A stretch of DNA of 64,000 nt from Mobula hypostoma (taxonomy: Eukaryota), in assembly GCF_963921235.1 (NCBI RefSeq), contig NC_086108.1, positions 38,380,001 through 38,444,000 on the forward strand, written 5' to 3'. A model generated the notes under the pieces. It was not told the DNA's origin and searched no databases. It saw only the letters and a list, made by a program, of their open reading frames with translations. Positions 710 through 54,369 of this stretch are shown here, piece after piece (the first letter of the stretch is position 1; every line of letters starts with the position of its first letter). The position numbers were made by a program, and so were the translations under genes.

Positions 710-1060
710 AGTTACAGACCATGATCTTAGGGTGTCCCTAAAATTTTACAGCCAAATAAGTGTTTTGGATACTTTATCACATTTGTAATGTAAGAATCAC
801 AGAGGCCAATTGGTATACAGCAAACTCCCACTAACAGCAGTGATAAGTTAATAACCAGATAATCTACTTAAATGATGTTAAGTAAGGGATAGATATTAGT
901 CTCATAACTGAATGTTCCCTATGCTCCTTGTGAAATAGTACTATGGGATCTTTTATCATCCATTTGACAAAATGGATGAAGCCCGGGTTTAATGGTTGAA
1001 CTGAAAGATAGTTCCTCCAGGAATGCACCAAATCTTCAGTACTGCACTGGTGTCAACATT
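710..1060 (-). mobile_element. Old Deu-domain SINE (SacSINE/AmnSINE-like) fragment
   Basis: Recognised motifs gaaatagtactatgggatctttt and cagtactgcactgg; related decayed copies at ~24400-24620 and ~45340-45720. Confidence 0.5.
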
Positions 1061-1650
1061 CATAGAGTCTACAGCACAAAAACAGGCCACTTGGGCCAAG
1101 TCATCTATACCACTCTGATATTCTGCCTACTGCCATCTACCTACAACCAGACCATATCCTTCCAAACCCCTCTCATCCATGTACCTATCCAAACTTCTTT
1201 TAAATGTTACAATGGAACCCTCATTCACCACCTCCATTGGCAGTTCCTTCCATGATCACACTGCTGTCTGAGTGACACTGTTTCCCCTCAGATTCCCCTT
1301 GAATATTTCACCTTTCACCCGAAACCCATGACCTCCAGTTCTAGTCTCACACCACCAGAGGCGAAAAGCCTGTTTGCATTCACCCTATCTATACTGCTCA
1401 AGATTCTACATACCTCTATAAAATTTCCCCTCATTCTCCTACACCCCAAGGAAAAAAGACCTAACCTATTCAACTTTTCACTATAATTCAGGTCATCAAG
1501 TTCTAGCAACATCTGTGTCAATTCTCCCTGTATTCTTTCAAGCTTATTAATGTCTTTCTTGTATGTAGGTGACCAGAAATGCACACAGTGTCACCAATGT
1601 CCTGTGCAATTTCAACAAAATATCCCAATTCCTGTACTCAATGCTCTGGG
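1060..1650 (-). mobile_element. CR1 LINE 3' fragment
   Basis: ORF 1315-1584 (FWSPTYKKDINKLERIQ...LNRLGLFSL..RRMRG) is the typical CR1 ORF2 C-terminus; CR1-type 3' UTR follows. Confidence 0.85.
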
Positions 1651-2455
1651 AAGATTCAGTGTGATGCCCAGTTAAGAAAAATACTATGGTGGCAGAAAAC
1701 TTACCCCCACCACCCCCACCCCTCAACATATTCCAAGGGATTTGGAAGCATAAATGAAAACAGAAATTACATTCTGCCATTTTCTATACACATGAGCAAA
1801 AAACATTGAGTGACAACAGGCACAAACACATAATTACCAGAGTACCAATCCTATCTGCATAAATTTTTGCCAGTTCTATTCTGTTCCCTAACAGGTTCCA
1901 AATTACAGTTAATTCAAATTGAAATGTTAATTTTACTTATCTTTCTGCAAATGCTGCTTAAACCTGATGCCCATTTTTGCCATTTGCCATTTTTTAATTC
2001 AGACTTCCAAATCTGCAATTTAAGATTTTCACAACACAAAATGTGTGCCTAGAAATTCAACTGCAAAATGTTTTTGCTTCAATATTATGCTATTACTTTA
2101 ATTTTCACTGAAACAACAGGCCAATGATCATTTTCAAGCTTTCTGTTGTGAGTACAAAAGGACAGCAGGTACTGTTGTGGACTCTGCTTCACAGAGATAT
2201 ACTGTAGCTCAGCTCAGCACTCTGGCCAGAGGCCTTCACCATACACTGCCTGAAATGGATGGTGGCATCAGATAAAGGCCGAGGTGGTGGCATTTGCTTC
2301 ATGATTATCTCATGCCCAGATGTGACGATTTTGTCTCAGTCCTGCTCCCCTGACTTGGAACATCAGGCGGTCAAGTGTCATCCATTCTATCTGCTGTCAG
2401 TCGTGGTTGTAGTGTACATTCTACCTGTTTAAGGATCAAGCTGGCACTGGATGAC

Positions 2456-5400
2456 AATAAGACCGCAAGATATAGGAGCAGAATTAGGCCATTTGGCCCA
2501 TCAAGTCTGCTCCACTATTTCATCTTGAGTGATTCAATTTTCCTCCTAGACTCAATTTCCTGCCTTCTGCCTAAAATCCCTTCATGCCCTGAACAATCAG
2601 GAATCTATCAACCTTTGCCTTAAATATGAAGACTTGGCCTCCACAGCTGCCCGTGGTAAAGCATTCCACAGCTTCACTACTCTCTGGCTAAAGAAATTCC
2701 TCTTTATCTCCATTCTAAACGTCACTCCTCTGTTATGAGGCTGTGTCCTCTGGTCATCTATCAAGGCCTTTCGCTATTCAATAGGTTTCAATGAGGGCAC
2801 ACCCCATTCTTCTGAATTCTAATGAATACAGGCCCAAAGCCATCAACCCTTTGTATTTTCTCTCCATTAAGAAAATAGTCAACCCTTTCACTTCTTCAAC
2901 CAAAGTGCATGACCACACACTTCCTGACACTGTATTCCATCTGCCATTTCTTTGTCCATCCTCCTAATCTAAGTCCTTCTGCAGCCTCTCTACCTACACG
3001 AAACTACCTGCCCCTCCACCTACCTTCATATCGCCTGTAAACTTTGCAACAAAGCCATCAATTCCATCATCCAAATCATTGATGTATAATGTAAAATGAA
3101 TCCCAACATAGACCCCTGAGGATCACAACTAGTCACTGGCAGCCAACCAGGAAAGGCTCCATTTATTCCCATTCTTTGCCTCCTGCCCGTCTATCCAGGA
3201 TAGAATCCTTGATGTAATATCATGGGCTCATAGCTTGTTAAGCAGCCTCATGTGTGGCACCTTGTCAAAGTCTTTCTGTAAATACAAGTACACAACATCA
3301 ACCGATTCTCCTTTGTCTATTCTGCTTGTTATTTCTTCAAAGGATTCCAAAAGACTTGTCAGGTAAGATATTCCCTCAAGGATTGATTTGCCCATGCTGA
3401 CTACAGCCAATTTTATCATGTGCCTCCAAGTACCCCAAGGACTCTTCCTTAATAATAGACTCCAATATCTTCCCAACCATTGAGGTCAGGCTAACTGGTC
3501 CATAGTTTCCTTTTTTCTGCTTTTCTCCCTTCTTGAAGAGTGCAGTGACATTTTCAATTTTCCAGTCTTCCAGAACCATTCCATCAAGTGATTCTTGAAA
3601 GATCATTACTAATGTGCCCATGATCTTTTCAGTCACCTCTATCAGAACCCTGGGATGTACATCATTTGGTCCAAATGACTTATCTACCTTCAGACCTTTC
3701 AGTTTCCCAAGAACCCTCTCTCTAGTAATGGCCACTTCATGATCCCTGACACATGAAACTTACAGCATCCTGCTAGTGTCTTCTACAGTGAATACTGAAG
3801 CAAAATACTTATTCAGTTCGCTGCCATTTCCTTTTCCCCCATTACTACCGCTCTAGGATCATTTTCCAGCAGTCCATTATCCACTCTCACTTCTCTTTTA
3901 CACGTTATGTATCTGAAGAAACTTTTTGGCATGCTTTTTAAGGTTACTGGCTAGCTTACTTTCATGTTCCGTCTTTACCTTTTTAATGACTTTTTCGTTG
4001 CCTTCTGTTGGTTTTCAAACACTTCCCAATCCTCTAACTTCCCACTCATTTTACCTCTTTAATACGCCATCCCTTTGGCTTTTATGTTGCTCTTGACCTT
4101 TCTTGTCAGCCATGATTGCGTCATCTTGCCTTTAGAAAACTTCTTTCTCTTTGGGTTGTATATATCCTGTGCCTTCCAAGTTGCTTCCAGAAATTCCAGC
4201 CATTGCTGTTCTGCAGTCATCCCTGCTCATTGCTGTTCTTTTCCATTCAATTCTGGCCAACTCCTCTCTCACGCCTCTGTGATTCCCTTTACTCCAACAT
4301 CTGACTTTAGCTTCTCTTTCTCAAATTTCAAGGTGAATTCGATCATATGATCACTTTCCCTAAAGGTTCGTTTACCTTAAGCTCTCCAACCGATTCTGGT
4401 TCACTGCACAACACCCAGTCCAGAATAGGTGATCCCCTACTGTGCTCAACTACGAGCTGCTCTGAAAAGCTATCTCATAGGCACTCTAGATCCTCCTCCT
4501 CCTGAACTCTAGCAACAACCTGATTTTCCCAATCTACCTGTATAATAGAAGTCCCCCATGACTATTGTAACGTTACTCTTTTGCATGCATTTTCTATCTC
4601 CCATTGTAATTTGTAGGCTACATCCTTACCATTGTTTGGGGTCTGTATACAACTCCCATCAGGGTCTTTTTACCCTTGCAGTTCCATAGCTCTATCCACA
4701 ATGATTCAACACTTTTCAACCCTCTGTCAGATCCTTCCGGTGATTTGATTTCATTTTTTACCAAAAGAGCAACGCCGCCTCCCCTGCCTTCCTGCCTGTC
4801 CTTTCGATACAATGCATTAATCTACTTTCAGACATGATTCAGTGATACCTACAACATCATACAAGCTGATCTGCAACTGTGCTACAACCTCATCTGCCTT
4901 ATCCCATATATATACTGCACACATTCAAATACTGTATAAGATCTTCAGTCCTGTATTCACCCTTTCTTGATTTTGTCTGTCTTTTAGGTTGCAACTCATC
5001 CTGTTGACTGCAATTTTGCCATATCAACAACCTCTCCTCACTACACATTGTCTCTGCTTGTAAACCAGCTACCTCAGCTTCAACATTATCATCCACCTTC
5101 CGTATGATATTTCTTGCATTGAAATATACACAGCCCAAAACATTGGTCGCACCATGCTCAACCGTTTGATTCCTAACTTTGTCTGAGGTCTTACCAACAT
5201 CTGCCTCCACAATTCTTTCACTAACTGTTCTGGCATTCTGGTTCCCAACCCCCTGCAACTCTAGTTTAAACCCCACCGTGCAACATTAACATTATTCCTT
5301 GTTACGATATTAGTCCCCCTCCAGTTCAGGTGCAAATCCTTCCTTCTGTACAGGTCCCTAGAAGAAAGCCCAATGATCCAAAAATCTTAAGCGTTCCCTC

Positions 5401-8281: not shown

Positions 8282-11200
8282 TGTTATGCTTTGCAACTCC
8301 AAAGCATAAAACAAATCTAAAGAGAAACATGAGGAGAATGGGCTAAACGTGTACTTTTTTATCATGCCATTTTTACCTTTAGCAAGGCACACATGATTTG
8401 ATGTAGTAATGTCATGATGCATGTCATTCACATGTTTTTACATACAAACTGAAATGCATTATGTAAAAATGTTTAATCGAACAAAATATTTACAATATTA
8501 CTCAAATATTACTGGAATATTAAATATACAGCACTTCTCTCTGCTTAGCTATAAACTCCAACTCAATATGGAATGCGTCACAACAACATGCAATGCCTTG
8601 AAAGTATTCAGCCCCCATACTTTTGTTCACATAAATGATTTTTTATTTGTGAATCACATGTTTCTTTTTTTTCACAGTAGAGCCTAAAAACAGGGAAAAA
8701 TGTAAAGCATGATAAATAAAAAATTCAAAAACTGAAATGTCAGCAGTTGGAAAGCATTCATCACTCTTTGCTCAGTGCTCAGCTGTCTCTATTAGCTTTG
8801 CACAATGCATAGTGTTGAGGCCAAAAATTTCTATTTTAGTCTCATCTGACCACAGGACCACCTTCCACATCTTTACAACATCTTCTACATGATGATTTGC
8901 CTAGTCTTTATGAGCAAGGATATGCGTTTTTTTATAAAGCCGTATACGTGGCACAATTCTAATACAGACAACTAACACCATCCCAAATGTAAAGTACGGT
9001 GGAAGGAGCACCATGCTCCGGAGATGCTTTGCATTTTGACCATGCCTAGATGACTGGCATGTAGGTCCTCCAACATTTTAGCTCTCAGCTTGGATGGCAC
9101 AACAACTCTCAATCTCCACGAGACGAATCCCGGCAAGGGCAAGTTCATCCAGGCAGTGGTAAAATGTGGGAACTGAAGTTTCTGCTGCACATTCCAGCCA
9201 TTTTGGATGGCTATGTAGACCTGAGACAGTGTTTTGGTCTTTTCTAGTTTCCCTTTGGATCACCTCTACTGTAAAAGGAAGACTTTCAATCTGCATTAGG
9301 GAGAATATGTCAAGAGGAGTGTCCTTTTTTGGAAGTTTTTCAGGTATTTCCTTTTCCAAGTGTAAACAGGACAATCCATCAGCATTTCCATGACTAATCA
9401 TCTTCCTGAATTCGACCTTGCAAGTGCTTCCTCCTAGAAAGAGAGTCCATCTCTGCATTCGTGCAGCTGCTTTTAGTGGAACAACCTTCTGTGGACTGAA
9501 AATGGACATTAGTGGTTGATGATCAGTAATGAGGGTAAACCTCATTACCCTCATTAATGATGAGGGTAATTAATGAGGGTAAACTCTCTCCCACACAGGT
9601 ATTGGGTGAATTGTTTTACATCCAAACCGGACTCGTCCTCTTTGTCAGTCTGTGCATAATTTTTCTCTGCAGTGGTAAGGGAACGTGATACAAAGACTAC
9701 AGGGTGTTCAATTCCATCGTTCATAACATGTAACATGACTGCACCTATACCATGAGTGAGGTGACAACAGGCAAGCTTCACTGGACGATGTGGATCATAA
9801 TGTGCGAGTACAGTGTACGACATGACCATTTCTTTTACCTTTTTGAAAGCTGCCTCACACTCTTTTCTTCCCGATGCATAGTCATAAGTTCAAGGGGTGG
9901 AGCACAGTAGCCACGTTTGGCAGGAACCAATCATAAAAATTGAAAAATCCTAAAAAGGACTGCAACTTTTGCCATGTCCTTTGGCCTTGGGGTACCCACC
10001 ACTGCTTGAATTTTCAAAGCACACTTGTACAGTTCTGATGCATCAGTGGCGTGGCCACGGTAAGTGATGCTTGGCTTAAAGAATTCACACCTGCTGCATA
10101 ATGCTCCAAGACCACAATCTTCTATTATTTTTAACACTGTCTTGAGAGTTTGAAGATGTTTCTCATCATCCTTACCAGTAACAATGATGTCATCCAGGTA
10201 ACACTGAGTGTCTGGGCAGACTTGCAGCACCTAATCCATGGCTTTCTGCCAGGTTTGCTACTCCAAAAATAAGCCTATTATAATGCTAAAGCTCTGTGTG
10301 AGACTTCATGATGAGAAACACTGGAATCTTCTTCCATCTCCATCTTACCAAAGGCCTCAAGTAAGACCATATTGCAGAATTGTTTTCCTCCAGAAAATTT
10401 GCAAAACTATCCCCTATCCTCCGCAGAGGGGATTGATCCACTTTCTGTACTGGGTTGATGGCGACGTTAAAATCACTACAGATACTGACAGAAGCATTCT
10501 TCTTGGCTACTGGGAGCACTGGTGTTGCCTATGGCTCCACTCAAGTTTGGAAAGAATTCCTTCAGCCTCCATGTGATCAAGTTCACTGGCTAGCTTACCA
10601 TGGATAACATACAGAACCAGATGGGCTTTTCAAAACTTGGGTGTGGCATTGTCATTCAACACTATTTTACCCTTGATACGTTTGAGTTTTCCAATGCCAT
10701 CCTTGAACACTGCTGTGGCATCATCCAACACCTTTCTTAATTTGCTTTCAGTTGACTCTATTACAGGGAATGTGGTGGATGGATCTCCAATTAAGTTGCA
10801 GTTGTCTCAGGCACTCGTGACCCCACAAAGCTGTCCCTCCAGTTTTTACCACATACACACTCAATGTGGCTTGTTGCTTGCTGTATTTCACTGTCATGAA
10901 TGCCATCACCACAGGAGTTATCTTTTCTCCAGTGTAAGTTCTTAGTTGGATATCTGATGCCTTCGGTTCAGTACCTTAGAAATGTGACTCAAAATCATTT
11001 TATGGAATGGCTGAAACAGTCGAGCCGGTGTCAATTTCCTTTTTAATTAATTTACTGTTCACTTTGATGTAAGCTATATTGTTCCTCTCCTGTTATTTTC
11101 TGCATTGTACATCTCAAGGCTATCATTATCAGATTTTTTAACAACAACGTGTAGACTAGTGTTCTTTTTGAAACTGCAACTTGATCTTTTATCTTTATCT

Positions 11201-12182
11201 CTTCCCAGTGCAGTCCATTTATTTTTATCTGCCCAACATGCTTTTTGTAAGTGTCCTACTTTGTTGCACTCCCAGCAAGTTACACCTTTAAACCTGTATT
11301 GGTGTGGTGTACGTGTGACCCTACCACAACAGTAACAATTTGTTAGGCCAGGCCAATTTCTACTTAAACATTGCAATTTTGTTCACACTCACTTTTATTC
11401 CTGACTGCATCTCACTTGCATCTCTGGCAGTTGCTTCCATTAATACAGTAATTTCAACTGCTCTTTGAAATGCAAGTCATGCTTCAATTAGGAGCTGTTT
11501 TTGAATGCTTTCTTCTAATATTTCACAAACTAACTGATCTGTCAGTGCATCATTAAGCCCATCATTGAACTGGCAATGCTCAGACAACCTCGTCAATTCA
11601 GTCACGAGTCCTTTTGATTCCACTTATGAAACCTAAAGCATTTTGCAATCAACAATGGTTTCAGTTCCAAATGTTTCTGCATTACTTTCACGATATTAGC
11701 AAACCTCATTTTGGCCTGTTTAGTTGGAGCATTAAACTTCTAAGCAAACTTTTTGCTTTTAAATTCAATGCGCTCAGCAAAACTGGCATGAGCTGTTCAT
11801 TGGCCACCTCATTTGCTTCAAAATACAGCTCAGTTCACTCAGTAAACAATACCCAGTTATCTCTAGTATAATTGTTTTTTTAAAAATCTCAAACGTCCTG
11901 CTGCACTTCAACAGGTACGTAGTCATGTTGGGTTCAGTTTAAAGCTTACTCATCACTACCTATGTTTTGTAACTCCAAAACATAAAACCAATAAAAAGAA
12001 AAACACAAGGAGACCGGGACAAGTGTTTGTTCTCTGTTTTTACCTTTTACTATATGACGTGGTATCATCATGATGTTTGCTATTCATGGACTTTTACATC
12101 TAACCCACAATGCATTATGCAAACAAAGTATGCTTAATCAACAATATATTTACAATATTACTGAAATATTAAATGCACAACA
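8282..12182 (-). mobile_element. Decayed Gypsy LTR retrotransposon with both LTRs (3' LTR ~8282-8533; 5' LTR ~11960-12182)
   Basis: Two similar ~230-250 bp repeats (tatg(c/t)tttg(c/t)aactccaaa..ataaaac...tttacaatattact..aatattaaat..aca.ca); purine tract next to the 3' LTR; gag zinc knuckles (CYCCG, CWECNKVGHLQKAC); RT CYLDDIIV; RNase H (LAHYDP..VKLAC, FTLITDHQPL); integrase N-terminus (LHASHLGMVKM). Confidence 0.85.
8590..8935 (-). mobile_element. Tc1 DNA transposon remnant nested in the Gypsy element
   Basis: TIR-like caatgccttgaaagtattcagcccc at ~8591; minus strand 8820-8865 encodes KVVLWSDETKIEIFG, the motif carrying the first catalytic D of Tc1 DD34E transposases. Confidence 0.75.
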
Positions 12183-42695: not shown

Positions 42696-45600
42696 ACAAA
42701 TCTGCAAATGAATAAATCTAGAAATTGCTGAATAAGTTGTTTAATCCTTCGAAAGCTTTTTAAAAATGGTATTATCACTCCAAGGATCATTATCCCTGCA
42801 CGATTAGATCATTCCACTGTATATTAAAAATACATAATAAAAATCAATGATTACCCATTCTAGTCTTTAATGATCCTAACAATAAAATCCAAACAACCTC
42901 TGACTTTGAAAATACTTTTTTTAATGTAGAGTTTCACTTCGCTTCAGTTTCTTCATTGTTTGAAGATAATTTTCTCTTTAAAAGATGAATACAATTAATT
43001 GTCAATTTGCATTGTTCTTCTCTTACAATATTTTCCTTATCCTCCAATTTAATATGGAATTCAATTCTGGTGAAGATTTTATGGTGCAGACTCTGCCTGG
43101 GTCATTAAAAATCTTTTCATCTAATTGGTTAAGAAAACAGATTGCTGCTCATCATACTTGTACACAAGCTCCAGTTCTTGTGTAGAGGGTAGCGCAATTT
43201 TTATCTGGCTATTTTACCTGGAAATTGCCACGCAAAAGTCAACAGGCAAGTGAAATTTTTGGTGTTGTTCATTCACTGCTGAGAGTAAAATCTGAGCAGA
43301 GACTGATTTCTTAAGCAGTCAGAAACAAAGGATCTGGGCTGCATCTTAAGTTATTTGTGACAAATACATGAAACAGCATTAACCGTTTTTACCAATTAGA
43401 AGCATCCTCCTTAATTTAAAAAAAACAATTGCAGTGTTTGCACCATAGGCACTGCAAGATAATGCCTAAATATCATGTAATTATAGGAATTGCTTGTAAC
43501 ATCACTTGCTTGAACAAAGTGATGGTCAAAATCAAAGTAATAAAAATTAAGTATTAAGAATTCTCTCTCAAAGAAAAAAAATGCAAGAACAGAAATTGGT
43601 CGAGGAAAATCTTGTTTTCAAGTTGTAGAAACAGAGGTCGAGCTACATAATAATTTAAACCAACGTTAGTAGTAAACAACATCTGTAACCACTTCTCCCT
43701 CAACGCTAAAGTACTGCTGGAAATAGAATATTTTGTCTGAACGTGATGAATGATTTATATTTTTCAAAATGGTATACCTCAATGTAAGAAGGTATGCAGG
43801 TTTACAATAATGGCATTTGTGCCATAGACGAGGAACATTAGATCCAAAGTTGAATTAAGTCATTTTGCTTATTTTAAATCCATGTTTCTGTTCATTATAT
43901 AAAAACAACGTCTAACTTATTATGTAATTTGATATATTTACTGTAAAAAGAAATGAGATTTAAGAACCTTACAAAGTTGAAGAGGTGGGATTGCTATTTT
44001 GGGGTCACCTAATTTCAAATTATGCGCAGTCATACAAGGCACACTTAGCTCCTAATGATGTTCAAGTGGTGAATCAGCAAATACCTGGAATATGCCCAAT
44101 CAAGCAATCCCTCAGAAAGTGTCTCAGGCTTCTAAGGGCGATTCACAACAGAAGTAGCTGATTGGATTTCCCAAACAGTATGATGAGATCCAGAAATCAT
44201 AGAAAATGCATTTTACTCAGAGCTAAACACATAGTTGTTATGCAATTCAATTCCTTGGTATCAGCCTTATTGCCTTATTCTTCAATTAAAAATCTCATAT
44301 ATGGATTATGTCCATAGAGATCAACACACTGTTAACTGCTGTAGGGTGTAGAAACTGAGCATTGCAGTTACATCAGCAGTGGTGATCCCACAGCAATTTG
44401 CTCTGAGGAACCGAGTAACAGTTTGTTTTTTTTTTCCTTTATTTAGTCCCTATCATGCAATTCTTCAGATTTGCTGGAGGCAATGAAAAAAATAACAGGA
44501 GCCACAACTTCAAAGAGAACAGAGCATCTACTTGAATGCAAAAGAGGCACAATGCCCTACCTCATGCAAAATAATACTACATGCAGTGACACATAAGATG
44601 TTCCAGACCACTTAATAAATTTTGCAACCAAACAGGCAGGAAAATGCATTCTACTTGCATGGTCAAGAATTAAGTTATTCTCTCTGTTGCATTATCAAGA
44701 AGCAGAGAAAAGACTTGAACTGGAATTGAGCTGTTAACCAGCAACTAAACTGCACCTTGCATTTCTGAATATATAATTTATCATAAGTTCTTGTTAAATT
44801 AAAATTAAAGCCAAAAGATTATAAGCACTATCAAAATATATTCCTACTATCCCATGCCTCCTAGCAATATAACTGAAAATGCTGTGAAGCCTTAGAGGTA
44901 AAAGACAGTGAGATGACAGTGAGATACAAAGATCGCCAGTGACAAAATGTTGTAATGATGTTTTTAATTGTTGCAGGATTGCAAACATCATAGCTGTACT
45001 TACATTCAGAAAATTTTTAGTGGTTTTATATCAGAAAGGCTTTCCTTTCTACAAATAACCAGATGACTGCTGACTAAAGAAAATACTGCATGTAAAAGCT
45101 TGCCTCCCAGGGAGCAGTCGTGACTCATTTATTCCACAGCAGCCAGTAATCACAGCCCTGCAGATCGAAAAACTTTTCAAGGGATCATAACCATTGGCAG
45201 GCTGAAGTAGGGCAGCAAAACACATTCATCAGAAGAGAGTCGATATCATGAGACGTACAAGAAGATCAAAATTAGTATTGGGCATATCATAGCAGGCTGA
45301 AGCAATGATTTTGCTGTTACAAGGGACAGTAGGAAAAAAATTGAAGAATGCATTTCTATTGCACCTTTCATGATGCAAAGCTATTTCAGAGCAATTTGCA
45401 GCTAATGAACTAATTCTTAAAGGTGCAGTCATTATTGTAGTGTTGGAAGCATGGGAAAGTTGTTCATAGCTTAATCCCTATGACAGTAATGATATATCTC
45501 TCTTGGTAATGTTTGTTGAGAGATGACTATTAACAAGTTCACCTGACGACCTCCCCAGTGCCTCCAAGTAATTCAACTTTTAATTGGAACAGAAGGAGTA

Positions 45601-47509
45601 TTTTACATAAAATAAAATAACACTTTATTTAAAAGATGGATTCTTCAGCAGTTTTGCACTTCCTCAGTACTACCGTGCTCAGCAATCTGGTTGACATTCC
45701 ACAGTGAGATAGCCAAGAAAGAACCTCACCAGAAGATGTATTATTTTCAATTAACATCAGTCACAGTCATGTGTATTCTGCAAAATATATCCCATCGACT
45801 CCCTGCTAAGAGATGGGAGCAACCACTCATTTAGAAGACCGTGTTCAAGCAGAGCTAAGTGGAGTAGGATTATCCCGTAAACCATTACTTTCAATGAAAG
45901 GCTTCCTTTGGTGCTGCTAAATTGTAAAATCACGCAAACTGACAGAGTAAAAGCGCTGGCAGACTGGTAATGGCAAGCTAGATTCCTACCACAAAGTGAG
46001 TATTGAATCATCTGTTGCCTTAGCAATATGGAGCATTGGGAAAAACAAAGCAAGCTTTAGTCTGCTTTTGGCTATTTGGTATCAGTTCATGAGGATTTGA
46101 CACCGTAAGTGAATATCTGAAACATTCATTATGTTAAGTGTAACAAAGGAAATTGAAAACGGTACTTAAAGCTTCTATTTAAATTTTGGAACTGTGATGG
46201 AATTTAGATGCATCAGCAATCTGCATTTTCTTAGAATATTTATTGTTAGGCCAAATTAATATTCTCTTGCTTTGACCAAGGGAGATCTTCGATAATTTAT
46301 TAAGTTTACCAATTTACTAAAGAACTCCAATGACAATCAGTAAAAAGCACCAGTTCATTGACAGACTCCAACTAATTCATGCATGGAACAATAGCTGCTC
46401 TTAGACTGGAGTTTGACTTCCTGGAAAAATTTCCCCGGGATGGAGGGAATTACGCAACCTAATAAGCAGACCTCATATCTCACCACACGAGATTCCACTG
46501 TACCAGGTCTGTTGCTATCTTTCTGCTCAAAATGGTGAACAGGTTTCTTTACAGCAAGATGTGAAAAAGTATATATAGCTCATGAAATCTCTGCTAACTC
46601 TCAAGAACCATCCACATAGGCCTGTTCCCCTTCCCCCAATCCCCCAAGTCTTAAATCAAAATCCAAGAAATTGACACTGTTAATATTTTTTATTACTTAC
46701 CATCCTCTGGCTTTATTTGATCAGTTATTCTTCTGGGTAAAAATTATCCACTGAATTTTGTTATTTTCTTATGATCTACCGTACCTCAACAATTAAAGTT
46801 AATCTCTCCAAATATCATGACTTCCAGCTGGGATGTGTGCATGCCAAAAGAAGAGATACTAAGCACACATGACATACTTTTCATTGGTCTACTGTGTAAA
46901 GTTACAGATTCAACAGTGGCATCAATGGATTCCCTTTAGCTAACAGTTCTCTGCAGGAAGAAGTTGCAGTTTAAAAATCATAAATTAGCAACAATGCTAC
47001 TATATATACTGTGCATACCAATTCATTATTCACAATAACCGTCACATTTCAGTCACTCAATTAAGATTGGTCAAAATGGACAAAAACAGATAGAATATGG
47101 AACAATTAATTTTAATCAATTTGGAAATAGATTCAGGGCATCTCCAATTGGAACAATTGCTCCAAACACGTAGAAAGAGTAATATACCTGGGTGTAATAT
47201 AACTAGATCCAGGCAATTCATGCACTAAGTCAGGCCTGGACAATTTGTTCACCAACTACACCCAGTCAACTCATCAACTGACTAGTTCAGAGATTAAATA
47301 GTGGAATTCCCTGGGACTGGTGAGGTGGTGCGGTGGGGGGGGGGGGGGAGAGAAGTGGTGGAGGAAGTGGGGTGGGATTGAGACTTCAGCCCAATCACTT
47401 GCTGTGGTCTTATCCCTTCGGAATTGGGTACATTGTCATGGTATAATATTGTTTGATCAGATATTTCTGTTCAGTGTGAGGTTAGCTACCTTCCATAAAA
47501 GGCATTCTA

Positions 47510-50500
47510 TTGTTTAGTAGGTTGAGGAGAGAGCTTAGATCATTGAGACAGAGGTGGAAGGTAGCAAGTGAGGGTGACAAGCCAGGGCTTGCTGATCTCC
47601 GAGAACATTTTCAAATAAAGTTAGCATCACTCCGTCGTACAAAGTCACAACGTGAAAAAAGAAAGAAGAAAGAGAAAGCAAGAAAGTTAATTCTTTGAGA
47701 ACCCTCACAAGTTTATAAAGAAACTGTTTGAACAAAGTAGGAGCAGGCAGCTTATCTCTCAACAAGAACTTGAGGATCACCTGGCAAGCACTTACTCTAA
47801 CGAACAGCAGGAGGCTCCTTTGCTTGACATTTCAGGGCTTGTGAAGCCTACCAAGCCAGGAGTGAAGTTCGATCTGTCAGAACTCAAACTGGCAGAAGTC
47901 GAACAGTTCATCAGAAAGGCAAGGTCAGGCTCAGTGCCAGGACCTAATGGAGTGCCGTATAAGGTATTCAAGAAGTGTGAAGAGCTGAGGAAATACTTGT
48001 GGAGATTGTTAAAGGTGGTGTGGAGACAAGATGTTGTTTCTTTGTCATGGAGTGAGGCTGAAGGAGTATACATCCCAAAGGAAGAGAATTCTACTACATT
48101 GAATCAGTTCTGACCAATTTCACTCCTGAATGGAGAGGAGAAGATTATGTTTGGCATTCTGGCAGAAAGAGTATCTTCATTTGTGATACAGAATGGATTA
48201 GTAAATACGTCTGTGCAGAAAGCAGGAGTACCAGGCTTCCCAGGATGCCTTGAACATTCTAGTATGATATGGCATACCATCCAGGAGTCAAAAAGGTTGA
48301 GAAGAAATCTGGCTGTAGTTTGGCTTGATCTGGCAAATGCATATGTTTCTGTCCCCCATGTCCTGATTGAGTTTGCGATGAAATTCCTATGGATTCCTGC
48401 TAAGGTGAGGAACTTTGTTATGCAGTACTACAACGATTTCTGGATGAGGTTTTCCAATCAGCAGTTTACAACTAGGTGGCAGAGCTTGGATGGTGGAATC
48501 CCAATGGGATGTGCGATTTCACCCATCCTTTTTGTGTTAGCCATGGAGGTCATTGTGAGGGCTGCAGAATCAGTGGGACCAGGTGTCGCACTTGATGGCA
48601 GAGAGGAGTTACCACCAATATGAGCGTTCATGGCTGATCTTACCCTTTTGGGTCGCAGCACGGAGGCAGTAGAAAATGTACTATCTAGACTCGAGGAGCT
48701 AATGGATTGGGGAAGAATGAAGTTCAAGACCAAGAAGTCAAGGAGCCTTGTTCTTAGGAGAGGAAAGCTCCATTTCACCCTTTGTGGAGAGGAGATTCCA
48801 TCCATTCAGGACCAACCAGTTAAGAGCCTCAGGCGATGGTACACAGAGGAGCTGAGAGACACCAAGAGGGTTCAAGAGACAGGAGAACAGATCAGCAGAG
48901 GTCTGACGTCTGTTGACAAGTGTGGCTTGCCTGGCAAGTTGAAGTTGTGGTGCTTGCAATACGGACTGATGCCATGGATAATGTGGCCACTAACTGTCTA
49001 TGAAGTGTCAATGTCCCATGTTGAGGCAATGGAACAGAAGATCAACAAGTATGTGAAGAAGTGGCTTGGAGTACTGAGCAGCCTCACCAATGTTGCAATC
49101 CACTGTAGCCAGACAAAGCTTACCATCCCAGTGCAATCCCTTGTTGAGGAGGTCAAGGTAGCCAAGTAAGATCATTCTTGATGCTTCGAGACTCAAAAGA
49201 TTCTGTCATCAAGAACACCCAGCCGGATGTGCAGTCAGGCAGGAAGTGGTCAGCCCGTGTAGCACAGTCCAGATTGAAGCACAAGGAGACAGTTGGGGCT
49301 ATCCAGCTAGGCTGCCAGGGACTTGGATGGACAACCCACAAGTGATGGTCATCTTCTACAGGTAAGGAACGTCGTGATCTTGTAACACAAGAAATACGAG
49401 AGGTAGAAGAGGAGAACAGGTTAACTAAAACAGCTGGCCTGGCCAAACAAGGGGCTTGGACCCGGTGGGAAAGTGTTGAACAATGACATCTATCTTGGAA
49501 TGTTCTGTGGCAGATGGAACCGCTCTGCAATTCTTTTCTATGCAGAGCAGCATACGATCTGCTCCCAACACCTGCCAACCTCAGCACCTGGTATGAAGAT
49601 AAGACAGACAGGTGTGCTGCTTGTGGCGAGAAGGGAACACTTCAACATATTTTGAGTGCATGCAGAGTCAATCTTTCCAGCGGCATGTACACTTGGAGAC
49701 ATAACAACGTTCTCAAAGTTGTAACAGAAGCGGCTGAGCAGAGAGTACTGCAGCACAACTTATCTCATGCCCCATGCTGCACAGAACATCGCATATCATT
49801 TGTGAAAGAAGACTCCAAGTCAAGGGTGTACAGCGCAGGCTCACGATCAAGCATACTTTCTTCAGCCAATGATTGGTGTGTCAAGGCTGACCTGGACGGG
49901 AAAGGCAGTTTCCCGGAGCAAATAGCTTTCACAGCTTTGCGTCCAGATATAATCGTATGGTCTGACACCAGTAGAGAAGTGGTTATTGGTGAACTCACAG
50001 TCCCCTGGGAAGACAACATAGATGAAGCCCATGAGCGCAAGTTAACCAAGTATGCAGAATTAAGATCAGAGTGCAGAGACAGGGTGGAAGGTCTCATGTT
50101 ATCCATTCAAAGTAGGCTGCTGTGGGTTTATTGTATTCACTCTCCAGAAGCGGCTGCATGACCTTGGCTTCACTAGAAGAGAGATCAAGTCAACCAGCAG
50201 GGCTGTAGCTGAGGTAGCAGAGAAAGGATCAGCATGGGTATGGACCAAGTATGTCCAGAGGGGCAGATAGTCAGACAGTGTATACATCTTTTGCAAACCC
50301 TTCAGTAGTTGCATAGTCACCTGAAGAGCAGACTATCTGTTGGATGGAAGCGACCAACAACTCTGATAGAGGCAGATGCCAAGTTTTTAAGCTCACCAGT
50401 GGGAGGTGGTGCTTTAGTACTGCTGGTCCACCACCTTGAGAGAGTCTTGATCATAAGCGGGCCGAAACTCCTGAAGACAGGTGGCAGATCAACTGATGAT

Positions 50501-50570
50501 CCCAATGGTGATAGCACAGGACAGTTAACATCTTAGTCCACGTGTATTCTGTAACTGTTAACTTCATTAA
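47510..50570 (+). mobile_element. Hero-clade (R2 group, restriction-like endonuclease) non-LTR retrotransposon, 5' truncated, mildly decayed
   Basis: Single broken ORF: RT (PGPNGVPYKV, QKAGVPGFPGCLEH, WLDLANAY, GIPMGCAISP, FMADLT), CCHC knuckle CAACGEKGTLQHILSAC, RHNNVL, RLE motif LRPDIIVWS..VVIGELTVPWEDNIDEAHERKLTKY; stop at 50268-50270 followed by a ~300-nt 3' UTR. Confidence 0.88.
50431..50503 (+). ncRNA. Candidate permuted (pseudoknotted) hammerhead-like RNA with kink-turn in the Hero 3' UTR
   Basis: CCACCT-T-GA-GAGAGTC-TTGATC-ATAAGC-GGGCC-GAAA-CTCCT-GAA-GA-C-AGGTGG-CA-GATCAA-CTGATGA-TCCC; see finding. Confidence 0.6.
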
Positions 50571-50579
50571 GTCTAAGTG

Positions 50580-50808
50580 ACGCAGACAAAATGCTGGAGG
50601 AACTCAGCAGGCCAGGCAGCATCCATGGAAAAGAGTACAGTCAACGTTTCGGGCCAAGACACTTCGGCAGGACCCTTTGACAGGCCTCAGCCTGAAACAT
50701 CGACCGAACTTTTTTTTTCCATAGATGTTGCCTGGCCTGCTGAGTTCCTCCAGCATTTTGTGTGCATTGCTTGGATTTCCAGCATCTGCAGATTTCCCCT
50801 TGTTTGTT
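50580..50808. repeat. Palindromic Penelope-terminus-derived element with degenerate hammerhead cores
   Basis: Inverted arms aaaatgctggaggaactcagcaggccaggcagcatc / gatgttgcctggcctgctgagttcctccagcatttt; minus GTC-CTGCCGA-AGTGTCTTGGCCC-GAAACGTT-GAC. Confidence 0.8.
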
Positions 50809-50894
50809 TTTAAAGTCAAAGTGATAATGTTTTCAGGAACATCAAAGCAGCCCATTGGCACTACAACAGCAATGAGCTTGGGATGTTGGTGTGT

Positions 50895-51382
50895 GTAGGA
50901 GGTTCACGAGGATGATTCCAGAAATGAAGGGGTTCAAATATGAGGAGTCTCTGGCAGCTTTGGTCCTGTATTCACTGGAAGTTCGAAGAGTGTGAGGAGA
51001 CCTCATTGAAACCTACCAAATGTTGAAAGGACCAGATAGACTGGATATGGAGAGGATGCTTCCTATTAAGGGAGTATCCAGAACTAGAAGGCACAGCCTC
51101 AAAATTCAGGGGTGACCTTTTAGGGGAGGCAAGGAGGACTTCTTTTAGCTAGAGAGTGGTGAATATGTGGAATGCTCTACCACAGACTTTGGTGGAGGCC
51201 AAGTTCATAGGTATATTTAAGTCAGAAGTTGATAGTTTCCTGATCGGTCAGGGCGTCAACAGATATGGCGAGAAGGCAGGTGTATATGGTTGAGAGGGAT
51301 CCTGGATCAGCCATGATGAAATGGCAGAGCAGACTCAATGGGCTAAATGGCGTAATTCCGCCATGTCTAATCACCTTATGAA
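50895..51382 (+). mobile_element. CR1 3' fragment
   Basis: aggaggttcacgaggatgattccag ... ggatcagccatgatgaaatggcagagcagactcaatgggctaaatggc. Confidence 0.8.
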
Positions 51383-51557
51383 ATACAGGCAACAACCCTA
51401 ATAAGAACAGTATAAATGTCTTTAAGGGACATTCCAGTCCAAAGTTGTCAGAAATTGTTGAAAGAATTCAAGTGAACTGTTAACATACGGAACACATTAT
51501 TTGAAGGGGCATGGAGGATTGCACCAAAAGGGAAATAGCATATGAGAATGTGGGCTG

Positions 51558-51870
51558 CAGGGTAACATAGCGGTTAACAACATCACTTTACAAAACCCAG
51601 AGATCATTGATTGGGCTTTGATTCCTGCCTGTTTGTACGGAGTTTGTACGTTCACCCCATGATCGTGTCGATTTCCTCCAGGTGCTCCAGTTTCCTCCCA
51701 CATTCTAAAAGATATATGGTAAGGGTTAAAGTTGCGGACATCCAATTTGGTTCCAAAAGTGTGACAACACTTGTTGACCGCCCCTACCACAAATCTCTGC
51801 TGATTTTATTCAATGCAGATGACGTATTTCATTGCATGATTTGATGTGCATGTGACAAATAAAGCTAACC
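51558..51870 (+). mobile_element. V-domain SINE
   Basis: tRNA-like head, ggagtttgtacgttcacccc..ggtgctccagtttcctcccacattctaaaaga core, tail gtgacaaataaagcta. Confidence 0.8.
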
Positions 51871-52404
51871 CATTTTTCCCTTTAATACTGATGTACAAGT
51901 GATGGAGGCTGAACAACTTTCCATTTATCAATTCCATTCAGATTATGGTTCTATGCAAGGTGGAACTGTGCAGTAAAAAAAGATTAAGAAAAGAAATGGA
52001 GAAAAGAGACAGACTTGTTTGACCCTCAGCCTTCACTAGAGATAAATCCGTGAATCCTGCAGAACCAGATCTCTGAGGGCACTGGAAACCGAGAAACATT
52101 CTCTCTCAGATGATATTCTTTAAGATTTTCTAATAAGGTCAAACAAAGCCAGGTACACTGGTAGATGCTGCCCCTGCTTTTCTCTGAAAGTGTTTGTGCC
52201 ACAGAGAACATAAGATGGACAAAATCTATATTGCGATTCACAGAGTAGCTCTTTGGCCATTAGGAAGATGTGAGTATGGAGGACTCTTGTGAAAAGTTCT
52301 CCTGTAGTAGAAAGAAAAGGAAGTTGTCTGTCGTAACTACAATGAAACTCTTCTTTCTGAAGGCAGCCAGGCTACAAGCATCTCCTACATCCCTTGGCAT
52401 ATCC

Positions 52405-52476
52405 TCATCCTCCTGGGACCGGCTCAAAGGAAATCAGAATTACACATGTTGTTGTCCGTGCATCGATACTCAGATC
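52405..52476 (-). CDS. Candidate stop-containing (terminal) exon
   Basis: Strong acceptor tttgtttcgttttcatttttacag; phase 0 DLSIDARTTTCVILISFEPVPGG*, or phase 1 (G)SEYRCTDNNMCNSDFL* (stop 52424-52426). Confidence 0.3.
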   Translation of the reverse strand, partial: DLSIDARTTTCVILISFEPVPGG

Positions 52477-52777
52477 CTGTAAAAATGAAAACGAAACAAA
52501 TGAGATGAGGTACAGGAACCCAACATATGGTAGATTTGGAAATATTTGCAGTGAAGGGTTTTGCAGGTTGACAAGATATGAAACTGAGCTAATTTGTGTT
52601 TGATTAAACAAATATTGCTTTCTATATTATGTATGCCTCAAATCCAATTCAAAAGCATGAACTATTAACATAATTTAATATATTTTGCAGATATAGTGAA
52701 AGGTTTAGATTGGTTTGACACATCTTGGAAAGGAAAAGAATGTCATGGTGCACATGAAGGTATCTTTATAAGCCAGC

Positions 52778-53148
52778 TGTATCACGATATGACCTTGATA
52801 CTGTGACGTTCTGGGTGGGGGCATGGTCGACAGCCCGCCCCTGCATTTCTAATGACCAGCACTGTTTATTGTTCTTGTATTAAAATGCTTTTATAGGATT
52901 AGGGTGGGAAGTTCCAGTTCATTTATTGTTACATTTTAGCATGGGTTATACAGTTATTTGCTTGTGTATTTGTGGATCACACTGACTGTAACCGGGGTGT
53001 GTGATGGTCACCTCCCCCGTCGGTGTGAGACTGGTTGGGTTTACCCTCCGGGTCATGGTACCTGGTTTGTTTGTGTCTATCACAATAAAACTGTTGTTGA
53101 GTTAAAGAGTTTCCTCATCTGTCATTATAGACCAAATGCTCGCCACAA
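52778..53148 (+). mobile_element. Probable solo LTR
   Basis: TGT start, ..tcgccaca end, AATAAA at ~53084, LTR-like composition. Confidence 0.45.
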
Positions 53149-53891
53149 TACGTTGTTCTACAAAAACCACTGATCAGCTTGGAATGACTGCATTCATTAA
53201 AGAGTGTTCTGTCACATGCTCTACCAGTCAGTCACACCCAAAAAAATACAGAAAGACTAAAGTGTTGTTTCATTATAGTCCCCTGATACTCCTTCAAAAG
53301 TTCCATTTCACATAAAAGAAATAGAAGACTCAATATTTGCTCTCAAAATTTTCCTCAACGTGTTCACTGTCTGTGGGTACACCATCTTCACAGTATCTAC
53401 CAATGTGTTTGTGTGTAGGTACTGGAGATTTTCACAATATGGGTGCAATAATTGAATTGTATCTTGAATCAGTCCCTGCTTTTCCTTAGGAGGCAGCACA
53501 GTTTTGTTTCAGCTGTACATTAAATGCATGGTAGCTGCAGCAACTCTGGCCTGCATCATGAAATGGAGCTTCATAAGGAATGGTACTGACTGGGACAAAG
53601 TGACTCCAAGGCTCAAGATAATCCAGTAAAAGAAAGCAGAGAAGGTGAGAAATCTATCACAAGGGTAGGAAACGCTTTAGTCACGAAGCCAGTAAGGACT
53701 GATCCTTCAGTTAATGCACTTAATCTAGACTCAAGAATCCTGCCACGTGAGATTTTATGGTCAAAGTCAGTGAATGCACCAAAATCATCAGCCGCCTCAA
53801 AGATTACTATATTTGCCAATTTTTGTCAGTGACCTACAAGCCATCTTTTTCGGGATTCACAGACAGCAATCACATGTTACACCTCACATAC

Positions 53892-53962
53892 CAACATTTG
53901 GCTCAACAACCACATCTTGAATTTTGCATATATTCCCAAGAGCATAACCATGACAAATACAA
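53892..53962 (-). CDS. Candidate 71-nt exon
   Basis: cctctgttattgcctccag|TTGTATTTG...AAATGTTG|gtatgtga; two open frames. Confidence 0.2.
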
Positions 53963-54369
53963 CTGGAGGCAATAACAGAGGATGGGTGTGGCTGCAATAC
54001 ATTACCCTGTGGAGGGGAGAATACTCAGTGTACAAACACTGGTACCACGGATGGCACTGAAATGAAAGTAGATGACAGCAACTGCATATCCAAAACCTCC
54101 CCTCACCTTCCCACAATCTCTTCACACAAAAAAGTTGAAAATGGTGTGACTATTATTTACAGTGCCTGCTTTGGCCCTCTTCACTTAATACTACTCATGC
54201 TTTTCTTCTTCTAAGCCACAGACAACTGAAAACTCACATTGTTGTAATAACAACAGTAGAGGTACACATACTTGTAAGATGTAAAGTAGTCCGGCAAACT
54301 GTCCTAACCAGACTGATGGGACTGAGGCACATCCCCAAGGGAACATGAGATTTCATGATGGTTTCAGAA

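Follow-up and report, generated by a model that had tools for sequence, protein, structure and literature searches.

Two non-circular permutations of the hammerhead ribozyme, types SGC and CSG, in which the blocks S, G and C are rearranged, have been described and cleave in vitro (Eckert, Friedrich, Weinberg & Weinberg, Nucleic Acids Res 2023; PMC10085705). In that report the blocks are taken as uninterruptible, the linker between stems I and II of type SGC is typically 3 nt long, and no example is given from the genome of a known organism except for one GCS candidate in a bacterium. Hammerheads of the ordinary kind occur in Penelope-like elements, where they have been proposed to process precursor RNA, perhaps into circles from which reverse transcription yields products of more than unit length (Cervera & de la Pena, Mol Biol Evol 2014; PMC4209133). 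Here we analyze a hammerhead-like domain within 64,000 nucleotides of the Mobula hypostoma genome (assembly GCF_963921235.1, contig NC_086108.1, positions 38,380,001 to 38,444,000, forward strand), a stretch that we call the window and whose own numbering is used throughout. The domain lies in the 3' untranslated region (UTR) of a copy of a Hero-like retrotransposon lacking long terminal repeats (non-LTR) and carrying a putative restriction-like endonuclease (RLE). An original prediction, made from the window alone, had noticed the hammerhead motifs there and had treated types I-III as the only established natural arrangements, a premise that the 2023 publication of types SGC and CSG contradicts (PMC10085705).

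According to our best explanation, which on balance is probably correct as a whole, including the cleavage and processing roles proposed below, a conserved RNA domain, about 119 nt long, belongs to the 3' UTR of this RLE-type element, and positions 50393-50511 are a mutated version of it. That the predicted fold is real and conserved appears nearly certain from the comparison of related sequences. All bases of the hammerhead core are present: C3-A9, G12-A14, A15.1-U16.1, G10.1-C11.1 (G50425-C50463) and C17. The strands follow one another in the order stem II 5' strand; stem III 3' strand, C17 and stem I 3' strand; stem II 3' strand, GAAA and stem III 5' strand; stem I 5' strand and CUGAUGA. 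Judged from the sequence, this order is a non-circular permutation and the predicted fold is multiply pseudoknotted. The original prediction had correctly recognized a pseudoknotted core whose strand order cannot be obtained from types I-III by circular permutation, as well as the 6-nt linker AUAAGC that connects the distal ends of stems I and II. Its choice of stem II did not hold, as the proposed pairing between GGG (50459-61) and CCC (50501-03) is not conserved and misses the register by one base. The true 5' strand of stem II is located upstream at 50425-29, and therefore the G10.1-C11.1 pair, which had been reported as missing, is present.

The direct link between A9 and G10.1 is lacking, as G10.1 (50425) lies 75 nt upstream of A9 (50499). 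The path leads from A9 through helix IV and hairpin V to G10.1, and from C11.1 to G12, forming a four-way junction without unpaired bases, in which the core can be imagined to stack on stem II as in ordinary hammerheads, and helix IV on hairpin V. At their far ends, stems I and II are tied by helix VI, which substitutes for the usual loop-loop contact. Helices III and VI are separated by an asymmetric internal loop, 3 nt on one side and 5-6 nt on the other, with GA on both strands in most aligned sequences (NGA versus RAUGAA-like). This loop may form a kink-type turn, by which helix VI would be folded back against stems I and II. A pairing of the tail with GGUGG at 50480-84, considered at one stage, was superseded by helix VI, which is conserved. 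The coordinates of all features are collected in Table 1.

Table 1. Features of the RNA domain and of its host element (positions in the window)
Feature	Positions	Strand	Remarks
Helix IV, 5' strand (UCACCAGUGGGA)	50393..50404	+	pairs with 50500-50511; closes the whole domain
Hairpin V	50405..50424	+	occupies the entire space between helix IV and G10.1
Stem II, 5' strand (10.1-10.5)	50425..50429	+	pairs with 50459-63; G50425 is G10.1
Helix VI, 5' strand (CCACCU)	50431..50436	+	pairs with 50479-84; ties stems I and II
Stem III, 3' strand (16.6-16.1)	50440..50445	+	followed by C17 at 50446
Stem I, 3' strand (1.1-1.6, UUGAUC)	50447..50452	+	
Linker L1 (AUAAGC)	50453..50458	+	connects the distal ends of stems I and II
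Block G, stem II 3' strand (11.5-11.1, GGGCC)	50459..50463	+	
Block G, G12 A13 A14	50464..50466	+	
Block G, stem III 5' strand (15.1-15.6, ACUCCU)	50467..50472	+	
Unpaired GAAGAC	50473..50478	+	opposite UGA 50437-39; internal loop between helices III and VI
Helix VI, 3' strand (AGGUGG)	50479..50484	+	
Stem I, 5' strand (2.6-2.1, GAUCAA)	50487..50492	+	
Core C3-A9 (CUGAUGA)	50493..50499	+	
Helix IV, 3' strand (UCCCAAUGGUGA)	50500..50511	+	starts directly after A9
Non-LTR retrotransposon copy, family A	47514..50556	+	5'-truncated, decayed; reading frame broken into several pieces
Stop codon TAG of the element's reading frame	50268..50270	+	RNA domain begins 123 nt downstream
3' tail of the element	50512..50556	+	from the end of the RNA domain to the element 3' end; without poly(A)

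The copy in the window belongs to a family that we denote A, and it differs from the majority of 29 other family A copies at five positions of the domain (50418, 50427, 50437, 50441 and 50505). Four of these differences weaken hairpin V and helices II, III and IV, and the fifth (50437) falls into the unpaired linker between helices VI and III. Thus the stem II 5' strand reads GGUCC in the window and GGCCC in 28 of the 29 other copies; helix IV has 11 base pairs in the window and 12 in the family majority, with A50505 replaced by C in 28 of the 29. Position 50441 is G in all 29, which extends stem III to six pairs. With its open reading frame (ORF) frameshifted and five changes in the domain, the window copy is dead.

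Within the window, the motifs GTC (50444-46), TTGATC (50447-52), GAAA (50464-67), GATCAA (50487-92) and CTGATGA (50493-99) are found exactly where they had been predicted, and stem I indeed comprises six Watson-Crick pairs in register. The proposed stem III, ACUC(CU) with (GA)GAGU, was confirmed for its four in-register Watson-Crick pairs (50442-45 with 50467-70), whereas its outer part in this copy consists of an A50441/C50471 mismatch and a G50440-U50472 wobble. Taken alone, these motifs do not exceed chance, and the case depends on related sequences. Across 897 simulated 64-kb windows, the mean number of qualifying triples (stem I of at least 6 pairs, stem III of at least 4, G-U allowed, stem II not required) was 0.30 per window when any strand order was accepted, and the order seen here accounted for 37 in all. 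The folding energy of the site is ordinary (z-scores of -0.31 and -0.92). No Rfam family matched the site (positions 44000-54000, E ≤ 10), and no hammerhead or HDV-like family matched at E ≤ 1 in one long locus each of families A, B1 and C (L052, L037 and L035), those of families A and C including a full-length copy. The Rfam hammerhead models, which describe types I-III, miss the domain because its strand order defeats them.

Three further lineages of the same genome, B1, B2 and C, were picked by protein similarity, with divergent relatives as queries, and not by the motif. Their proteins are 35-44% identical to that of family A over the C-terminal 300 residues, and in all three the stop codon is followed by the same layout, although the helices differ in sequence. 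The 5' and 3' strands of stem II, for example, are GGCCC and GGGCC in lineage A, GUUGA and UCAAC in B1, GCUGA and UCAGC in B2, and GGGUC and GACCC in C. Hence the upstream strand forms five pairs in all four lineages, and four of the five pairs change on both sides. The complete table of pairs has 68 cells, of which 65 are paired, whereas sliding the register leaves only 19-33 paired; of the 17 pairs, 12 differ on both sides between lineages. The original prediction had called for a covariation test of this kind, and its expectation of a shared layout with different stem sequences is borne out in these other families. Three pairs are invariant across the four lineages (C15.2-G16.2, A15.1-U16.1 and G10.1-C11.1), and L1 varies between 3 and 6 nt. 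The cores read CUGAUGA, CUGAUGA, UUGAUAA and CUGAAGA, the version in B2 (UUGAUAA) having U3-A8 for the core pair C3-G8. The same exchange is reported as a covariation of natural hammerheads in Penelope-like elements (PMC4209133).

Covariation was scored between lineages only and not within a family. Apparently compensatory changes within a family, such as GACAU/AUGUC versus GACGU/ACGUC in B1, were rejected as CpG decay of dead copies. In family C, a distal GGGUCU was considered as the stem II strand and discarded; it is part of hairpin V, and the proximal GGGUC was taken instead. Further divergent protein queries (P0033, P0089 and P0151) yielded families A and C only. A herring protein (P0009, in a 90%-identity cluster with pipefish proteins) is 83-86% identical to family C (L043 and L044) over 317-335 residues, a high value for a retrotransposon should its hosts be only distantly related.

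Metagenome contigs were also scanned by protein, which gave 80 loci at 33-43% identity. A strict finder for the layout matched 44 of these loci, or 35 of the 58 that have at least 300 nt of downstream sequence; the matches comprise 40 distinct sequences and 33 distinct helix combinations. The controls gave no matches in 178,203 nt of reverse strands, 76,113 nt of upstream sequence and 2,200 shuffles, and 51 Mb of random sequence contained 54 two-helix matches, none with stem II. A second search, blind to the core, produced 43 matches, of which 34 have CUGANGA after stem I and 35 have the G10.1-C11.1 pair. Position 17, which was unconstrained in this search, is A in 16, U in 14, C in 13 and G in none of the 43. 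Helix IV reaches at least 5 bp in 30 of the 33 metagenome representatives, starting directly after A9 in 26 of those 30. In the same 30 representatives the hairpin V segment is mostly 23-26 nt long, and in 19 it is closed by its first and last base.

Altogether 37 sequences were compared as rows of one alignment. A15.1-U16.1 is found in all 37 rows, and the 10.1-11.1 pair is G-C in 34. On a structure-blind MAFFT alignment, 84.2% of cells are paired versus 61.8% in shuffles, with a covariation score of 0.477 versus 0.165 (neither reached by any of 500 shuffles), and slid registers give 37-47% paired cells and scores of 0.07-0.16. The rows had been preselected for helices I-III, and this weighs against taking the paired fractions at face value, as they partly reflect the selection; helix VI is therefore the unbiased part of the test. 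It is 75% paired on the MAFFT alignment, with all six pairs changing on both sides, and attains at least 5 bp in 35 of the 37 rows compared to a mean of 11.6 of 37 with swapped partners. RNAalifold predicted no pairs on the MAFFT alignment; the helices are pseudoknotted and partly misaligned. Judged by sequence comparison, these results demonstrate that the predicted fold and the core are conserved and covary across distant element families.

A separate feature is a palindromic Watson-Crick hexamer in the 30 nt before G10.1, found in 24 of the 37 rows (UGAUCA in 14, UGGCCA in 5). It lies in hairpin V of related loci such as L112, L123, L137, L115 and L128 and is absent from the window copy (50405-24). 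Since the palindromy is kept while the center of the hexamer changes, it suggests loop-loop pairing of two RNAs.

Intact copies probably self-cleave after position 17, which in the window corresponds to the bond between 50446 and 50447. More than 20 bp, in helices II, III and IV, would hold the two products together, and so their ends could be rejoined. The genomic arrangement of the element suggests what such cleavage might serve. Of eight distinct copies that keep the 5' start, seven have the 3' tail of another copy immediately in front of them, and the upstream pieces measure 180-841 nt at six junctions. As full-length copies almost always stand behind the 3' end of another copy, the ribozyme would trim longer-than-unit transcripts. 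Cut to unit length, the products might form circles and then serve as templates for more-than-unit reverse transcription. We tentatively propose this role in unit-length processing, with circularization as a further possibility, by analogy with the pseudo-LTRs of Penelope-like elements.

Partial-tandem loci in the M. hypostoma genome include L037, L040, L041, L051, L052, L053 and L062, and head-to-tail neighbors were also seen in metagenome contigs (L139, L170, L131 and L183/L184). The junction sequence is identical within a family. Families A and C and metagenome relatives have, in the 5' region of the element, a short hairpin-like unit of the type CCAGGAAAGACUGG that is repeated 4-5 times. 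Such repeats are located at L052:1206-1330 and, on the reverse strand, at L037 1035-1160, and they follow the 3' UTR in L139, L170 and L131.

Several observations weigh against a cleaving and processing domain. When the predicted 3' product served as query, 31 copies were sampled and none starts at 50447; 30 of them reach at least 112 nt further upstream and one begins near 50399, so the genome shows no trace of cleaved templates. If the RNA were cut 110 nt before its 3' end, the ORF and the priming end would come apart, except where the products remain associated or are ligated again. Partial tandems can also be produced by template jumping, without any ribozyme. Among 19 non-matching metagenome loci read by eye, nine are without the motif, at least eight have the layout, altered by a point change or with a stem I of only 4 bp, and two are unclear. 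Finally, we know of no tested hammerhead with an interruption between A9 and G10.1.

Three alternative explanations were weighed. A chance hammerhead look-alike in a young repeat, conserved merely because the copies are recent, was initially favored on the window alone, where the frequency of the two-helix triple (0.30 per 64-kb window) is in its favor, as is the fact that family A copies are 95-97% alike and differ by CpG decay and not by covariation. The other lineages and the metagenome loci overturned it. The six-helix layout recurs in lineages whose UTRs cannot be aligned and at 44 of the 80 metagenome loci, and all controls were empty, which leaves this explanation a negligible probability. 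It is also very improbable that the domain is an ordinary type SGC hammerhead with a stem II formed by CCC 50501-03 and GGG 50459-61. The S-G-C order matches and both triplets are present in the window, yet they are out of register and place U/C at 10.1-11.1. The contiguous strand after A9 pairs over 0-2 bp with the strand before GAAA in all 48 metagenome matches listed, and the same pairing fails in B1, B2 and C. The upstream strand, on the contrary, provides five pairs including G10.1-C11.1 in all four lineages, and the bases after A9 are taken up by helix IV.

A more serious alternative, although still an unlikely one, is a hammerhead-shaped scaffold that does not cut: a 3' UTR structure recognized by the reverse transcriptase (RT) during target-primed reverse transcription, perhaps one that also dimerizes by way of the palindromic hairpin V loop. 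Structured 3' UTR RNA with pseudoknots is reported to be bound by R2-type proteins (PMC12222951), and the domain lies 45 nt from the priming end. The lack of sampled copies beginning at the predicted cut (0 of 31) is what a scaffold would give, the templates behind genomic copies must have been uncut or rejoined, and the palindromic hexamer of the 24 rows would suit dimerization. However, a scaffold does not need every catalytic base, yet CUGANGA, GAA, the C3-G8/U3-A8 exchange and the avoidance of G at position 17 (0 of 43) hold across lineages with only 33-44% protein identity. Moreover, the roles of scaffold and ribozyme are compatible with each other. A far-reaching version of the ribozyme reading, which is speculative and rather doubtful as a whole, would make the six-helix hammerhead with its four-way junction a new structural form and the hallmark 3' UTR domain of an entire clade of RLE retrotransposons across many eukaryotes. 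It would cut and rejoin RNA, trim and circularize partial-tandem transcripts, and allow the circle to be copied repeatedly into insertions of a partial plus a full copy, with the palindromic loop of hairpin V pairing two RNAs.

The host element in the window is 94% identical to positions 798-3866 of a unit that measures about 3.87 kb. Its frames are shifted, an RVT_1 domain is detected (E 1.2e-9), and the zf-RVT match is weak. A CCHC motif and RLE motifs similar to PD...E...K were read by eye in the C-terminal part of the element, and a Pfam scan of its C-terminal 313 residues (E ≤ 1) returned zf-RVT as the sole match, with none to GIY-YIG. Relatives of the element protein number 5,605 representative proteins at E ≤ 0.001, the named ones being teleost proteins auto-named as R2-type pol. 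The 3' UTR of family A had at least 1,560-1,718 first-look matches in the 3.48-Gb genome; the 40 that were scored are 95-100% identical, and the copies are dispersed over many contigs with unrelated flanks. HERO is described as an RLE clade with largely non-specific target choice (PMC4640811), and a dispersed element whose predicted C-terminal region is R2-like fits the label Hero.

Alignment among family A copies is lost after about 50556-58, and the 30 closest copies align to about 50556. Many contigs of sequencing runs X19 and X20 depart at 50546-50548 (154 and 54 records at 50548), and members of the family seem to differ in their exact 3' terminus by some 8-10 nt. In contigs of four sequencing runs, the changes 50441 A>G and 50505 A>C account for nearly all depth in every run, and minor changes occur at 50458, 50459 and 50464. 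Within the region 50466-50549, the summed contig depth of run X1 rises from 265 (bin 50452-65) to 8,909-11,677 (bins 50466-93), one contig of this run switches to unrelated sequence at 50468, and runs X19 and X20 show a 1.3-2.9-fold rise. Some abundant sequence thus has in common only the last 85 nt or so of the element; it could be a non-autonomous partner or a set of very short copies. Directly 3' of the element, positions 50577-50790 contain a repeat some 200 nt in length that has long inverted arms (GCTGGAGGAACTCAGCAGGCCAGGCAGCATC followed further on by its reverse complement), and a similar palindromic repeat adjoins a family C copy (L047 flank).

Non-circular permutation of a ribozyme, so far shown only for RNAs of unknown hosts from metatranscriptomes and metagenomes (PMC10085705), is encountered here as a principle in the defined setting of a retrotransposon clade. 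One vertebrate-sized genome contains well over a thousand copies of the permuted domain, which also occurs on many environmental eukaryotic contigs. It appears that the hammerhead core can accommodate a four-way junction where interruption was thought impossible, which widens the search space for ribozymes. Long interspersed nuclear elements (LINEs) of the RLE type outside R2 gain a candidate RNA-processing step. In addition, there is a possible link between ribozyme, partial tandems and possibly circular templates that parallels proposals for Penelope-like elements and retrozymes.

In the literature searched, which did not extend to subscription journals or the supplements of PMC10085705, no hammerhead is reported in the 3' UTRs of Hero or other RLE non-LTR elements, nor anything like the split-block SGC order in the genome of a named organism or in an autonomous retrotransposon. 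Among known systems, the Rfam hammerhead families (types I, II and III) have the core bases in common with the domain and differ in strand order. The 5' HDV-like (hepatitis delta virus-like) ribozyme of R2 resembles the domain in being a self-cleaving RNA of an RLE-type non-LTR element, where it frees the element RNA from a co-transcript, but it is of another ribozyme class and is located at the 5' junction (PMC3774820). Penelope-like elements (PMC4209133) likewise carry a hammerhead in a terminal repeat and have a partial copy preceding full-length copies, and the U3-A8 core variant occurs there too. Their hammerheads, however, are of type I, minimal and often dimeric, whereas the domain described here is permuted and monomeric in design; similarly, their telomerase-like RT and GIY-YIG contrast with a LINE-type RT and a CCHC/RLE C-terminus.

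The closest likeness is to types SGC and CSG (PMC10085705), with which the domain shares all core bases, stems I-III, a non-circular order and a multiply pseudoknotted core. As in type SGC, block S (50440-52) is followed by block G (50459-72) and by the CUGANGA part of block C (50487-99) in all lineages, the linker between stems I and II is short, and an extra helix ties the other sides of these stems. In contrast to type SGC, block C is split here, with the 10.x strand located upstream of block S and A9 entering helix IV. Furthermore, whereas the published SGC examples come from metatranscriptomes and the CSG examples from metagenomes, the present domain resides in the 3' UTR of an autonomous retrotransposon in a known genome.

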